IMG/VR virus record: IMGVR_UViG_2778261244_000001
Length of the DNA stretch: 5,396 bases
Reading direction: 5' to 3' (one strand)
From: a virus
Lineage: Duplodnaviria > Heunggongvirae > Uroviricota > Caudoviricetes
Both the position numbers and the translations under genes were made by a program. Below the pieces are notes generated by a model. It had not been told where the DNA came from. It searched no databases and was given only the letters and a program-made list of their open reading frames with translations. Shown in pieces: positions 1 to 5,247 of the stretch (the stretch's first letter is position 1; each line of letters begins with the position of its first letter).

Positions 1-26
1 TAGTCTAAAAACTAGTATTAAGACTA

Positions 27-1385
27 TCACTTATTTAAGTGATACTGGTTGTCTGGAGATTCAGGGGGCCAGTCTACCGTGTATGTGCCATTTTTTCGGG
101 CAAAATATTCTTCTTTTGTGATTTCAGTGGCGCCAGCAGCCAGTGCCTTATCCAGACCAGAGAGTTTGTTTGCGCGACCGTATTTTTCTCCGTCCTTATC
201 TGCGAAGAGGAAATAGAACGGCCCCTCACGCTCTACAGATGGTTCAGCTTCCGGCGCGGTTTCATTTTTTGGGATATCAGATACCTCAGTTTCCACTGCA
301 TCAGTTTGTGTTTCTGATGACTGGAGAACATCAACAGTGCCCAGGTCTGTTTCTTCATTCTCAAACACGCCCTTTGTCGTCAGGTATTCGCAGATATATT
401 TGTTCAGTGCTACGGGATCTTTGTGAATGTCGATCGGACGCTCACGGACAAGGCCAAAAATAGTTTGGCGGTCGTAGCGAAGGGCATCAGGCTGTTTGCG
501 CATTGATGCCGAGATACGCTTCCAGTCTTCGCGGTCGTTGTCGATAACTTCTTTTTTTGCCCAGCGATGGATGCTGCCGTCAATGTTTCCGGCATCCACA
601 TCACTAGGCCAGAGAGCGTAGGCCAGTTCGTCATCCAGTGTTTTCCATGTCTGCTTGTATTCGCGATGAATGGCAGCAATGACCGGGCTGATTTTTCCTG
701 TTGAATTTTCAGTGTACTGTTGATTGGCTCTGGCGCGGGCGAGATCAACAACAGACGTGTATTTTCCGGTTTCCTTGCGTTCACCTTCGCGACGTTTTTT
801 CCAGATGCGCATCTCTGCCTGAATTTCGGGCCATTTAGCACCAGGAATACATTTATGCTTAACCCACCCAATGGCGTGCAACTTAAGCTCCGGATACATG
901 GCGTTAACTTCTGGCATTTTCATCAACGCTTCAACGATATGTCCGTCGAATGTTGCCATGTCTTCCTGCAACAATTCCTGTGCGCTAATAACCATATCAA
1001 CGGTGATGTTTTCACATGTGTCGAACTTAACCATGACAGCGTTCTGTACTTCAGGGGCCAGCTTGTCAAAAGTGACGTTCATCGGATCGGATTCAGTCTC
1101 AACCGGGACAAAAGAAGCAGACTCCTCATCCCAGCGGTTTTCCTGCATATATTCAGCATCCCATGAATCGAGGGCAGGGCGGGGTATGCCAGGTTTATCC
1201 TCGCAGACAATAAATTTATAAGCGCAGTCCTGAGCAGCCGGATAATGTTCCAGGAATTGCCAGTGAAATTTTGCTCGAGCACGGCGTTCGTCGCCAGCTT
1301 CAATGGCTGTGGCTACAGCCACAGCGCCTTCTTCCCTTGTTGCCAGTTCGTCAGGAATAGCGGCGCAAATAAAGACTTTACTCAT
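27..1385 (-). CDS. Hypothetical protein, 452 aa, strongly acidic C-terminal third; family not recognised
   Basis: Long uninterrupted ORF (track 27..1421, TTG at 1419-1421). Preferred start is ATG at 1383-1385 (MSKVFICAAIP...), preceded in mRNA sense by GAGG about 9 nt upstream. Stop TGA at 27-29. No ATPase, nuclease or methyltransferase motif recognised by eye. Confidence 0.8.
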   Translation of the reverse strand: MSKVFICAAIPDELATREEGAVAVATAIEAGDERRARAKFHWQFLEHYPAAQDCAYKFIVCEDKPGIPRPALDSWDAEYMQENRWDEESASFVPVETESDPMNVTFDKLAPEVQNAVMVKFDTCENITVDMVISAQELLQEDMATFDGHIVEALMKMPEVNAMYPELKLHAIGWVKHKCIPGAKWPEIQAEMRIWKKRREGERKETGKYTSVVDLARARANQQYTENSTGKISPVIAAIHREYKQTWKTLDDELAYALWPSDVDAGNIDGSIHRWAKKEVIDNDREDWKRISASMRKQPDALRYDRQTIFGLVRERPIDIHKDPVALNKYICEYLTTKGVFENEETDLGTVDVLQSSETQTDAVETEVSDIPKNETAPEAEPSVEREGPFYFLFADKDGEKYGRANKLSGLDKALAAGATEITKEEYFARKNGTYTVDWPPESPDNQYHLNK

Positions 1386-1906: not shown

Positions 1907-1933
1907 GACGTTAACCAGTTAACAATTAACGCC
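1907..1933. promoter_or_regulatory. Cluster of three TTAAC motifs (GTTAAC-N2-GTTAAC-N2-TTAACG) in the divergent intergenic region; candidate operator
   Basis: Directly visible: GTTAAC at 1910-1915 and 1918-1923, ATTAACG at 1925-1931. Lies between the minus-strand operon start (1854) and the plus-strand ORF start (1938). No protein-binding evidence. Confidence 0.2.
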
Positions 1934-1937
1934 GGAT

Positions 1938-2267
1938 ATGTGCTGTGGCAGCCGCATGTTCTGGTTCGATAAGTCTGACGAACGGGCGATATTCAGCGAT
2001 ATCAGAAAAGAAGGATACACATTACGCAATGGGAGACGCTTGATTATCAGCCCTGACATTATCGCAGATTTTCGTGCATTATCATTTGCAGACGCATCTT
2101 TTTCGATGGTTGTATTAGACCCTCCGCATCTTGAGAGTGTTGGTGATAACGCCTGGATGGGAAAGAAATATGGACGGCTGAATAAAGATGCCTGGCGTGA
2201 TGATTCGCGACAGAGATTTAAAGAAGCCTTTCGGGTGTTGAGGCCGCACGGCGTTCTGATTTTTTAA
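1938..2267 (+). pseudogene. DNA (N6-adenine/N4-cytosine-type) methyltransferase-like fragment, 109 codons, DPPH motif; probably truncated
   Basis: Translation contains ...ADASFSMVVLDPPHLESVG... (D-P-P-H at nt 2118-2129), resembling motif IV (hydrophobic run + DPP[YFW]) of amino-methyltransferases, then ...RVLRPHGVLIF. Frame ends at TAA 2265-2267 but stays open for 29 more codons (WNETQIPVSQILAL...) to TAA 2355-2357. Too short for a full enzyme; no motif I (FxGxG) seen. Confidence 0.4.
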
Positions 2268-2426
2268 TGGAATGAAACGCAAATACCGGTAAGCCAGATT
2301 CTGGCACTGACAGACAGAAAACCTGTTATCTGTCAACGAACAGGGAAAAAACGATAAAACCCACTGGATTATTTTTATGAAAGAGGCATCCAGTGAGTAG
2401 ATTCGTAAGGCTACAGATACGTATAT

Positions 2427-2500: not shown

Positions 2501-2532
2501 AGGAGGCCGCCCGAAAGGGCGGTAGTGAAATG
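2501..2532 (+). promoter_or_regulatory. Structured translation-initiation region: AGGAGG, then a 6-bp all-GC stem with GAAA loop, then ATG
   Basis: AGGAGG 2501-2506; stem CCGCCC 2507-2512 / GGGCGG 2517-2522 with GAAA loop; ATG at 2530. Linear SD-ATG spacing is about 23 nt, but about 7 nt if the hairpin forms. No U-tract follows, so not an intrinsic terminator. Confidence 0.3.
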
Positions 2533-2640
2533 CGAAAGTTCAAAATTATTATTGAAACGGGAATAGCTGGTGGAGATTTTGAGGATGTATTCGAAGTGGA
2601 CGATGACGCAACACCTGAGGAAATTCATGACGGAGCATAA
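2530..2640 (+). CDS. Small acidic ORF, 36 aa (MRKFKIIIETGIAGGDFEDVFEVDDDATPEEIHDGA)
   Basis: ATG 2530, TAA 2638-2640, preceded by the SD-hairpin arrangement. Too short for compositional support; may be a remnant. Confidence 0.3.
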   Translation: MRKFKIIIETGIAGGDFEDVFEVDDDATPEEIHDGA

Positions 2641-2881
2641 GAAATTTTCTTTAACTACTGCAATTACTCATACCACGAAATAAAAGACGATGAGGAAGAA
2701 CAAAGTGGCTGATTTTTGTTCAGCTAAATATAACATCAGTTTTGAAGAGCGGGATGAACTATTAATGGACTATGGTGAGTTACGCGGTGGAAGTGCTGCT
2801 GATGTCGAATCCTAGCGTGATGACTATGAAGCGGGAAAAACTCCGGTCGAAGCATATTGTGATGAGTGGGGCGATGAATGA
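2627..2881 (+). pseudogene. Small ORF interrupted by in-frame TAA (2681-2683) and TAG (2813-2815); reading frame otherwise continuous to TGA
   Basis: ATG 2627 preceded by GAGG with 6-nt spacing. Frame reads MTEHKKFSLTTAITHTTK-TAA-KTMRKNKVADFCSAKYNISFEERDELLMDYGELRGGSAADVES-TAG-RDDYEAGKTPVEAYCDEWGDE-TGA. The last 21 codons have no start codon of their own and end in an ATGA overlap with the next gene. Confidence 0.35.
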
Positions 2882-3165
2882 GCGAGATTAATTATCAGGA
2901 AGGGCATGAAACGGCGGGGCAAGCAAAACCAGTGGCATGGCGATATCGCTACGTGAAAAAAGGCGTTACGGACTTTCAGGGGAAGTAGTGGTCTGGTGAC
3001 TGGAAATATGTACCGAAAAAAGAGGATTGTAACGACAGGCCGAACTATCAAATTCAGGCCTTATTCACTGCCTCACCAGTCCCAGTTACATCAGAAGAAC
3101 TGGTTAAAGCTGTGCACTTTTATGAACAACTAAAACGCGAAAATCCACCAACATCCGGCAACTAG
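2878..3165 (+). pseudogene. Small phage-like ORF interrupted by one in-frame amber codon (TAG 2986-2988); 36 aa + stop + 58 aa in one frame
   Basis: ATG 2878 with purine-rich GGGG 6 nt upstream, and ATGA overlap with the upstream frame. Translation MSEINYQEGHETAGQAKPVAWRYRYVKKGVTDFQGK-TAG-WSGDWKYVPKKEDCNDRPNYQIQALFTASPVPVTSEELVKAVHFYEQLKRENPPTSGN-TAG. The downstream part is protein-like; the antisense ORF looks like junk. Confidence 0.45.
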
Positions 3166-3419
3166 ATTAATGGATTAACTATGTCGGTTAAACGACCAGC
3201 CAACTGAAAAAGCGGAAACCTGATTACAGGTTGCCAGATAAGGCAATGAGCTACCTGGCGCGGAACGGACTGATAAGTATGGGGAATGTTTTACGATGAA
3301 CCTTTAGACTAAAGAGTTTGTAACGCTATGTAAGTGATTTTTTCTGGTTTAGATATTTATATGTCCGGCCAAATTGAGGTGTGTTTAAATGTAATTGCAC
3401 ATTGATTGTAGGAGGAATA

Positions 3420-3599
3420 ATGAAAAACGCATTGCAGTTTTTGTTTGTTGCGTTCTGGTTGTTCGCATCATGTATGCCCATCATCTTCACAGCAAGGTAT
3501 ATGGAAAAAGTTGATGTTTTGATATTAATATTTGGATATATAAATGCCCTTTTTTTAGGGGTGTTCATGGCGGTCATGTGCATTGAATACTGGCGGTAA
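3420..3599 (+). CDS. Small hydrophobic protein, 59 aa, two predicted transmembrane helices
   Basis: Strong RBS AGGAGG (3410-3415) 4 nt before ATG 3420; stop TAA 3597-3599. Two hydrophobic segments (ALQFLFVAFWLFASCMPIIF and VLILIFGYINALFLGVFMAVMCI) separated by a short charged loop (TARYMEKVD). Gene is visibly AT-rich compared with its flanks. Confidence 0.55.
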   Translation: MKNALQFLFVAFWLFASCMPIIFTARYMEKVDVLILIFGYINALFLGVFMAVMCIEYWR

Positions 3600-3904: not shown

Positions 3905-3936
3905 TCCCCAGACAATTCTCTGGGGGATTTTTCATG
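3905..3936 (+). promoter_or_regulatory. Hairpin that places the transposase Shine-Dalgarno (GGGGGA) in its 3' arm
   Basis: TCCCCA 3905-3910 pairs with TGGGGG 3921-3926 (5 Watson-Crick pairs plus one G-U), 10-nt loop; ATG at 3934 lies 7 nt after the stem. RBS occlusion is a known way IS elements limit transposase translation. Confidence 0.35.
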
Positions 3937-5247
3937 ATCAAAGAGACTGTTACGATGAGTCATAAGGAACTCCACCGACTTCAGATTATTCAGGAACAAG
4001 CTGCGGCACGCATTGGCATTTCTATTCGGCAGGTTAAACGTCTGGTGCAACGGTATAGAAATGAAGGGCCTTCTGGTCTGGTTTCCCACCGACGTGGAAA
4101 GCGTCCTAATAATTCCTTTTCTACTGAATTCAGAGCAACAGTAATTTCACTCCTCAAAGGCCGTTACGCTGATTTTGGACCTACGTTTGCGTGCGAAAAA
4201 TTGCGCGAGATACACGGTTTATCTTTATCCGTTGAAACTCTCAGAAAGTGGATGATAGAAGTGGGGTTATGGCGTGAACGCCGTCGTAAAATTGCCCGTA
4301 TATATCAACGCCGCATGCGACGACCATCTTACGGTGAACTGATCCAGATTGATGGCTCACCTCATGACTGGTTTGAAAATCGAGGCCCCAGATGTACACT
4401 GATCGTTTTCATTGATGATGCCACCAGTGCGTTGATGGCGTTGCGTTTTGTGCCTGCTGAAACAACCCGGGCTTACATGGAAACCCTCCGGGGTTACCTT
4501 AATGATCATGGCGTACCGCTCGCTCTCTACTCTGATAGACACAGTATATTCAGGGTAAATAACCCAGAGCGGGAAGGTGAGCTGACCCAGTTCACTCGTG
4601 CGATAAAGACACTGGGCATCGAGCCAATCCATGCCAACAGCCCGCAGGCAAAAGGGCGGGTAGAGCGCGCCAATCAGACACTACAGGACAGGCTGGTCAA
4701 AGAAATGCGGCTTCAGAATATCAGTGATATTGAAACAGCAAATGCATGGTTGCCGACCTTTATTGAAGCCTATAACAACCGGTTCGCTACGTCGCCTCGT
4801 ACTACTGATAATGCTCATCTTGATGTGCACCATTCTGAAGAGGAACTGGGTTATATCTTCAGCCTACAGGCGAAGCGCGTTCTGTCTAAAAATCTCACTT
4901 TCCAGTACAAAAGCAGTGCGTTTCAGGTACGCAGTGAGGGCCGGGGATATCGACTTAGGCATTCGGTTGTTACTGTATGCGAGAACTTTGACGGTGAAAT
5001 TAACGTTCTGTATGACGGGAAAGCGCTGGGCTGGGAAAAGTATGTTGATGGCCCGGAGCCTATACCACTGGATGATGAAAAGAGTGTCCATGAACGAGTG
5101 GATAATGCCCGTATTGATTTACGCTCAAAATACTATGTTAAACCTAAAGCTGACCATCCCTGGCTTACGCGCCGAACGCAAAGTCATCAGCAAGTTAAGC
5201 CCCCGAAGTTACCTAAAAAGAAGCCTGATCCCGATAAAAAAGATTGA
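3934..5247 (+). CDS. DDE transposase (rve/integrase-core fold), ISNCY (IS1202-group) / IS481-like, 437 aa
   Basis: Intact 1314-nt ORF. N-terminal helix-turn-helix-like region (AAARIGISIRQVKRLVQRYRNEGPSGLVSHRRGKRP). Candidate catalytic residues in IQIDGSPHDW / VFIDDATS, LALYSDRHSIF, and GRVERANQTLQDRL (the G-x-V-E-R-x-N signature of retroviral-integrase-type transposases). Basic C-terminal tail. The ATG at 3955 (MSHKELHRLQII...) is an alternative start. Confidence 0.9.
   Translation: MIKETVTMSHKELHRLQIIQEQAAARIGISIRQVKRLVQRYRNEGPSGLVSHRRGKRPNNSFSTEFRATVISLLKGRYADFGPTFACEKLREIHGLSLSVETLRKWMIEVGLWRERRRKIARIYQRRMRRPSYGELIQIDGSPHDWFENRGPRCTLIVFIDDATSALMALRFVPAETTRAYMETLRGYLNDHGVPLALYSDRHSIFRVNNPEREGELTQFTRAIKTLGIEPIHANSPQAKGRVERANQTLQDRLVKEMRLQNISDIETANAWLPTFIEAYNNRFATSPRTTDNAHLDVHHSEEELGYIFSLQAKRVLSKNLTFQYKSSAFQVRSEGRGYRLRHSVVTVCENFDGEINVLYDGKALGWEKYVDGPEPIPLDDEKSVHERVDNARIDLRSKYYVKPKADHPWLTRRTQSHQQVKPPKLPKKKPDPDKKD

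Follow-up and report, generated by a model that had tools for sequence, protein, structure and literature searches.

The stretch of DNA analysed here (the window, 5,396 nt) belongs to Qin, the cryptic lambdoid prophage of Escherichia coli. In nucleotide comparison, window 77-5396 matches the chromosomes of E. coli 1303, G4/9 and PigCaeca_2 at 100% identity, and window 1-76 has no match in these three chromosomes. In the RefSeq annotation of G4/9, the gene order begins with an integrase, an excisionase and a RecE-like exonuclease, followed by the minus-strand genes ydfD and dicB. The plus-strand genes are, in order, a 'class I SAM-dependent methyltransferase' at window 1956-2267, two pseudogenes (a DUF7167 gene marked 'internal stop' and a hypothetical gene marked 'frameshifted; internal stop'), an ISNCY-family transposase and ydfW. 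The methyltransferase remnant, which is the subject of this analysis, adjoins dicB and ydfD in the window and is located in the right operon of Qin.

Several neighbouring elements are also damaged. The RecE-like exonuclease gene (window 27-1385, minus strand) is cut short, with ~450 N-terminal codons left compared with 823 aa in uninterrupted strains; we take window 1-76 to be the terminal 76 nt of an IS2 copy that cuts this gene, and the truncation resembles the ydfE::IS2 arrangement of K-12 Qin. In-frame stops are present in the next three small genes after the methyltransferase remnant (2530-3170, plus strand), namely TAA 2638-2640 in the DUF7167 gene, TAG 2813-2815 and TAG 2986-2988; counting the methyltransferase TAA, the right operon has four nonsense codons in ~750 bp, and since the neighbouring genes carry such stops, the whole operon is decaying. 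Further along, an unannotated hydrophobic open reading frame (3381-3599, plus strand; 72 aa, or 59 aa from ATG 3420), reading MKNALQFLFVAFWLFASCMPIIF...VFMAVMCIEYWR, looks like a two-helix membrane peptide and lies just upstream of an Rfam match to the sok antitoxin RNA RF01794 (3689-3860, plus strand; 104 bits against a gathering score of 59). Neither strand shows an intact hok reading frame near this sok-like RNA, and the G4/9 RefSeq record has no annotation there. The ISNCY transposase frame starts 74 nt downstream, and the site may be a hok/sok locus disrupted by an insertion sequence. This transposase is one continuous 437-codon ISNCY/IS1202-like open reading frame (3934-5247, plus strand), which RefSeq splits into an 'incomplete' transposase to ~4977 and a separate 49-aa ydfW (5098-5247); ydfW is simply the final 49 codons of the transposase frame.

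The open reading frame at 1938-2267 encodes ...VVLDPPH...RVLRPHGVLIF and ends at the TAA of 2265-2267, after which the frame is open up to a second TAA at 2355-2357. The in-frame translation of 1938-2400 is MCCGSRMFWFDKSDERAIFSDIRKEGYTLRNGRRLIISPDIIADFRALSFADASFSMVVLDPPHLESVGDNAWMGKKYGRLNKDAWRDDSRQRFKEAFRVLRPHGVLIF, stop, WNETQIPVSQILALTDRKPVICQRTGKKR, stop, or in short form MCCGSRMFWFDK...SMVVLDPPHLESVG...RVLRPHGVLIF, stop, WNETQIPVSQILALTDRKPVICQRTGKKR, stop, with the RVLRPHGV codons at 2232-2255. This translation confirms the DPPH, the RVLRPHGV segment, the ochre codon and the open frame behind it, all of which had been read from the letters in the initial annotation. Three features go beyond that reading: a 5' truncation, a +1 frameshift just before the second TAA, and the continuation of the original frame to its own stop, TAG 2398-2400. 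The original C-terminus, KTHWIIFMKEASSE, is encoded in the +1 frame. The first of the three pieces into which the gene is now divided (Table 1) carries the remnant of the SAM-binding loop, CCGSR (1941-1955), together with D30, D53-F54, DPPH and RVLRPHG. No sigma-70-like promoter site or Shine-Dalgarno sequence was found before ATG 1938 or ATG 1956. A terminator-like hairpin at 2233-2256 with its T-run is weak (3 G-C pairs of 8, 8-nt loop) and is regarded as a chance structure; it falls largely within normal coding sequence, and its T-run gained one T through the A-to-T change behind the stop.

Table 1. Parts and lesions of the methyltransferase remnant in the window
Feature	Position	Strand	Evidence
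Deletion junction GGATA; left side dicB leader, right side methyltransferase codon 10	1933..1937	+	Alignment with ATCC 8739, KL53 and MB19
Remnant piece 1 (codons 10-118; ancestral gene 162 codons)	1938..2264	+	phrog_954, PDLC03288, alignment of intact homologues
DPPH codons GAC CCT CCG CAT	2118..2129	+	Invariant loop after strand β4, motif IV position
Ochre TAA replacing AAA (Lys119), A-to-T at 2265	2265..2267	+	DNA alignments
Remnant piece 2, codons 120 to ~147 (WNETQIPVSQILALTDRKPVICQRTGK...), original frame	2268..2354	+	phrog_954 match, alignment
Homopolymer tract ACAGGGAAAAAAC with 1-nt insertion	2341..2352	+	DNA alignments; RefSeq 'frameshifted; internal stop'
Remnant piece 3, +1 frame, DKTHWIIFMKEASSE then stop; original C-terminus with conserved T-H-W	2353..2400	+	Alignment of intact homologues

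The pieces on both sides of the ochre codon belong to the same family, and their match lies far outside what chance would give. The 109-aa piece before the TAA matches positions 57-165 of the phrog_954 profile ('DNA methyltransferase') with E 2.3e-54, and the 29-aa piece after it matches positions 167-194 with E 2.9e-07; the two matches are collinear, so the TAA fills exactly one profile position. The REBASE-derived PADLOC profile PDLC03288 (MTase_II) also matches both pieces collinearly (E 6.5e-43 and 5.3e-07), as does PADLOC PDLC03730 (oMTase). The profile match runs along the length of the protein and indicates membership of phrog_954/PDLC03288 by descent. The family is large: homologues fall into 6,693 clusters at 90% identity in a large protein collection and 2,030 clusters at 50% identity in a representative library (E<=0.001), and tblastn against 50,697 phage genomes returned 254 records, 244 of which cover at least 80% of the query, at 43-65% identity, with hosts including Streptococcus, Vibrio, Acinetobacter, Porphyromonas, Listeria, Gordonia, Enterococcus and Staphylococcus.

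General profiles say much less. Against Pfam N6_N4_Mtase (PF01555), the window reading frames score 11.8 and 13.9 bits and their intact relatives 13.7-19.3 bits, all below the gathering threshold of 26.7. MT-A70 (PF05063) is absent among the Pfam matches at E<=10 for either form of the reading frame, and gives no match at E<=1 in seven intact relatives. Methyltransf_11 (PF08241) reaches 21.5 bits with the 109-aa reading frame, against a threshold of 21.2, over only 22 residues in the RVLRPHGVLIF region; it gives 20.4 bits with the frame joined across the stop and 13.7-30.6 bits with intact relatives. Weak matches to larger DNA methyltransferase profiles were obtained (phrog_67, E 8e-06; PADLOC PDLC03265, E 0.002). 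The NCBIfam search returned noise only, and the sequence searches of the PDB gave nothing significant (best E 1.2 with the reconstructed protein, 0.0075 with the family profile).

Comparison with intact homologues reveals three gross lesions. The intact E. coli homologues P0001, P0002 and P0004 have 161-162 aa and are 83-87% identical to the Qin copy; they read ...HGVLIFKWNETQIPVSQILALT..KPVISQRTGKNDKTHWIIFVKEATSE and, around the stop site, ...LIFKWNE...RTGKNDKTHWIIFVKE.... The first lesion is a deletion that joined the dicB leader (...CGCCGGATA) to codon 10 (TGTGCTGT...), with the microhomology GATA on both sides. It was mapped against the full-length Qin of ATCC 8739, in which the upstream operon is complete and 9 further N-terminal codons are present. 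The deletion took dicF, ydfCBA, dicA, dicC, ydaT, an O-like gene, a DUF977 gene and the first 9 codons (VSAPATILD) of the methyltransferase gene, and with these codons the start codon, strand β1 and the nearly invariant Asp9. The second lesion changed TTT AAA TGG to TTT TAA TGG. Intact P0001 and A19 have the AAA, as does the O157 allele, itself broken at other sites; Lys occupies position 119 in 133 of 142 representatives and in every intact homologue examined, so the TAA indeed replaces a sense codon. The third lesion is a 1-nt insertion that turned ACAGGAAAAAAC, as found in O157 (the closest allele without the insertion), into ACAGGGAAAAAAC. It throws the frame onto the TAA at 2355-2357 and leaves the last 15 codons, including those for T-H-W, out of frame (+1).

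The left end of the deletion recurs. Three Qin deletion variants have one left junction in common, ...AATTAACGCCGGATA, immediately before dicB on its upstream side (window 1923-1937; L004:3225-3240; L002:3225-3240). Their right ends differ, lying in the methyltransferase gene (window, G4/9 and 1303), in the O-like gene (KL53) and in the DUF977 gene (MB19). The full-length Qin of ATCC 8739 runs on from this common left junction into dicF. The constant left junction could reflect a hot spot, a lost mobile element, or selection that removes dicF-dicA while keeping dicB.

Decay is not limited to the gross lesions. When 53 intact enterobacterial homologues are aligned, they agree in 59 columns, and the Qin copy departs at seven of them by six substitutions and the stop (C39R, D40N, P58S, F69L, R76S, G102R and K119stop); when each of the 53 is left out in turn, the intact homologues average 0.26 departures, with a maximum of 4. 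A second Qin allele, in MB19 and MEI005, is ~98.7% identical and has the TAA and the extra base while keeping the ancestral R76 and L99; thus, R76S and L99S arose in the lineage of the window after inactivation. Lesions 2 and 3 are common to all four Qin-type copies in which they were checked, out of ~480 records at >=95% identity, and are therefore older than the split between the two Qin alleles. The gene occurs in some form in ~896 of 5,426 complete E. coli genomes. Of the records that match, 382 share >=99% identity with the window allele, and 386 are alleles at 80-90% identity that lie in other prophages and are intact in some strains. The RefSeq annotation is inconsistent: the gene is a pseudogene, flagged 'frameshifted; internal stop', in MB19 and MEI005, and elsewhere it is the protein WP_001326992.1 (103 aa; window 1956-2267) or WP_001310834.1 (118 aa; L003:2977-3333).

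The DPPH motif had been taken for a variant of a catalytic motif, and this proved wrong. D70-P71-P72-H73 is invariant in eight sequences from four bacterial phyla and is present in family members from phages of Proteobacteria, Firmicutes and Actinobacteria. In an alignment of 88 sequences, reaching down to 40% identity, DPPH supplies four of the seven invariant columns. Unbiased sampling with phmmer gave 150 representatives (50%-identity clusters), of which 147 have residues at these positions and 144 have DPPH; this sample was used in place of a scan of viral contigs, whose count of 73/73 was set aside as circular because the scan had used the peptide pattern V[VI]FDPPHL. The SAM loop follows a family norm too, D-x-C-C-G-[SGP]-[RK], so that the GSR of the Qin copy resembles a damaged GxG yet is normal. 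By these alignments, DPPH is the hallmark of a family of small phage methyltransferases that is distinct and widespread, and it is not a degenerate DPPY.

The structure of intact P0001, predicted from a deeper alignment, has a pLDDT of 95.1 and a pTM of 0.89, with all five models at >=93.5. Its strands span 7-9, 26-30, 34-37, 43-46, 64-69, 110-121, 138-144 and 150-156, and its helices span 82-87, 95-109 and 127-131. This predicted structure has the class I (Rossmann-like) fold of SAM-dependent methyltransferases, with a seven-stranded sheet matching solved methyltransferases. DPPH directly follows the strand 64-69 (β4) and thus sits at the motif IV position of N-methyltransferases; from this position and the weak sub-threshold matches, it is plausible that it represents the motif IV loop of an amino-methyltransferase. 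A first AlphaFold2 model, built on a shallow alignment (>=71% identity), reached a pLDDT of 76 (53-58 for the other four), and its fold searches are superseded; Foldseek on this poorer model gave M.TaqI, TTHA0409 and an N4-cytosine methyltransferase at weak E-values. The nearest relatives of the predicted fold are generic class I methyltransferases and RNA m2G methyltransferases, and such a predicted fold alone would not tell a DNA from an RNA substrate. The label of DNA methyltransferase is inferred from database names (PHROG 'DNA methyltransferase'; PADLOC/REBASE 'Type II' and 'orphan' MTase), from the position in the replication module and from adjacency to larger DNA methyltransferase genes, which family genes often adjoin, as in Gordonia phage Pickett (gp56), E. 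coli A19 and Akkermansia phage Chantilly. No restriction endonuclease gene adjoins the intact copies examined, so the description 'orphan', given at the outset, is fair. In the literature, we found no experimental work on the DPPH family, and PMC4444293 and PMC8022706 do not mention it.

Taken together, the segment is very probably a non-functional pseudogene of a ~160-aa phage SAM-dependent methyltransferase in Qin. The proposal of a decaying methyltransferase gene, too short to be active, was borne out by the phrog_954 and PADLOC matches and by a copy that is 5'-truncated, stopped and frameshifted; the gene is already known as a pseudogene in those RefSeq records that annotate the frameshift and the internal stop. 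Against this stands the annotation of the same reading frame as an ordinary protein in many genomes, under the two WP accessions. It is conceivable that this truncated product of 103-118 aa has been kept as a genuine protein with some function, residual or new, such as SAM binding, and its sequence is identical across many strains. Such 100% conservation could be read as retention, but the recent common ancestry of Qin would predict it equally well. The fragment is without ~27% of the fold, since in the predicted structure the truncation removes part of β5, the last helix, β6 and β7, and it is without the conserved W120, Q124, P138, T-H-W and K157; in the window, it also has no β1, no Asp9, no upstream promoter and no ribosome-binding site. 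Considering also the six substitutions at invariant positions and the neighbours with their in-frame stops in a decaying operon, we regard a retained protein as very unlikely.

It is even harder to credit that the full-length protein is expressed by recoding, in which ribosomes would read through the ochre codon at 2265 and then shift by +1 in the GGGAAAAAAC tract. The frame is indeed open after the TAA, and the shift does lie in a homopolymer run; however, two independent low-efficiency events would be required, the shift needed is +1 whereas heptamers of the A-AAA-AAC type promote -1, neither feature occurs in intact relatives, the 5' end and the promoter are deleted in the window, and invariant residues are mutated. 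Another reading keeps the pseudogene and changes its ancestor, namely a classical DNA amino-methyltransferase of the two families named in the initial annotation, N6_N4_Mtase or MT-A70, whose DPPY or DPPW drifted to DPPH. It draws on the sub-threshold N6_N4_Mtase matches over the stretch from DPPH to RVLRPHG (E 0.24-0.001) and on the weak phrog_67 and PDLC03265 matches. All N6_N4_Mtase scores fall below the gathering threshold and MT-A70 does not match at all, the motif order (SAM loop, then DPPH) is the reverse of that in PF01555, and the intact proteins have only ~160 aa, without a target-recognition domain; moreover, DPPH is ancestral and nearly universal in the family, thus it did not arise by drift. 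A classical ancestor is accordingly highly improbable.

For the pseudogene of a small phage methyltransferase, we propose the following course of events. The ancestor would have been a small SAM-dependent methyltransferase gene in the early or replication region of temperate phages, encoding a minimal class I fold without a target-recognition domain. The enzyme would have bound SAM through the D-x-C-C-G-[SGP]-[RK] loop, the acidic D30 after β2 and D53-F54, and the D-P-P-H loop after β4 may have faced the target atom, like the (D/N/S)PP(Y/F/W) loop of N-methyltransferases. The copy in the window is disabled in three ways: the deletion took the promoter-proximal part of the operon, the start codon and the first 9 codons; the Lys119 codon AAA became TAA; and the 1-nt insertion shifted the frame before the last 15 codons. 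After the second and third of these lesions, missense changes at invariant positions have kept accumulating, as neutral decay predicts.

The biological weight of this result is small, as it adds one more decayed accessory gene to the defective Qin. In practice, WP_001326992.1 and WP_001310834.1 are truncated fragments and are not to be counted as active methyltransferases in methylomes, and DPPH is to be read as the family signature of small phage methyltransferases. A bolder proposal, which we consider improbable, is that the ~160-aa DPPH family (~2,000 clusters at 50% identity, spread over phages of several phyla) forms an uncharacterised minimal class of methyltransferases, in which the motif IV aromatic residue is replaced by His, no target-recognition domain is present and the substrate is possibly RNA or non-specific DNA. 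If true, the Qin remnant would be a fossil of this minimal class within a prophage found in many E. coli genomes. That the 103-118-aa fragment may still be made and do something is a further step, and less likely than the minimal class itself.

Among known systems, the remnant is nearest to the small phage methyltransferases of phrog_954, with which it shares homology over the whole length and the DPPH, CCGSR and THW signatures; its amino acid identity is 83-87% with the E. coli members; with phage members from other phyla it is 43-65%. It also shares with the intact members in lambdoid prophages the genomic position downstream of the DUF977 gene. A working member of phrog_954/PDLC03288 has an unbroken frame of ~150-165 codons with K119, W120 and the C-terminal T-H-W, and an N-terminal strand leading into the SAM loop. 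The Qin copy differs from the intact members of phrog_954, PDLC03288 and PDLC03730 by its 5' truncation, nonsense codon, frameshift and six substitutions at invariant positions. It has no such unbroken frame, it keeps CCGSR, and the strand and Asp9 (ILD) are deleted; it is unable to encode the methyltransferase enzyme.

More distant comparisons concern the class of the ancestral enzyme. The β-class N6-adenine/N4-cytosine DNA methyltransferases of PF01555, such as M.PvuII, M.RsrI and YhdJ/M.EcoKII, have DPPY near the N-terminus, then a target-recognition region and then the SAM-binding FxGxG near the C-terminus. The DPPH family resembles them in the hydrophobic strand, the D-P-P followed by an aromatic residue or His and, ~25 residues later, a helix and an RVL(K/R)PxG strand, and the weak sub-threshold matches cover exactly this stretch. 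Unlike them, it has its SAM loop ahead of DPPH and nothing after β7, and at 162 aa it is about half their size. The RNA m2G methyltransferases Trm11, TrmN/Trm14 and RsmC, with their (D/N)PP(Y/F) loop, are also among the closest known systems, and RefSeq names intact P0001 and P0004 'class I SAM-dependent methyltransferase' or 'TRM11 family methyltransferase'. The TRM11 family combines a THUMP RNA-binding domain with a DPPY catalytic domain and has m2G10 tRNA activity; despite the RefSeq name on some alleles, the DPPH proteins do not show this combination. The closest parallel in fate is the copy in O157:H7 FRIK944 (L016:3974-4447; 89% nucleotide identity), which lies in another prophage remnant and is likewise a phage accessory gene killed by point nonsense mutations in a defective prophage. 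It differs in having W95stop and E158stop, without K119stop or the frameshift; this copy died through other mutations, thus the loss of this gene in cryptic prophages is recurrent.
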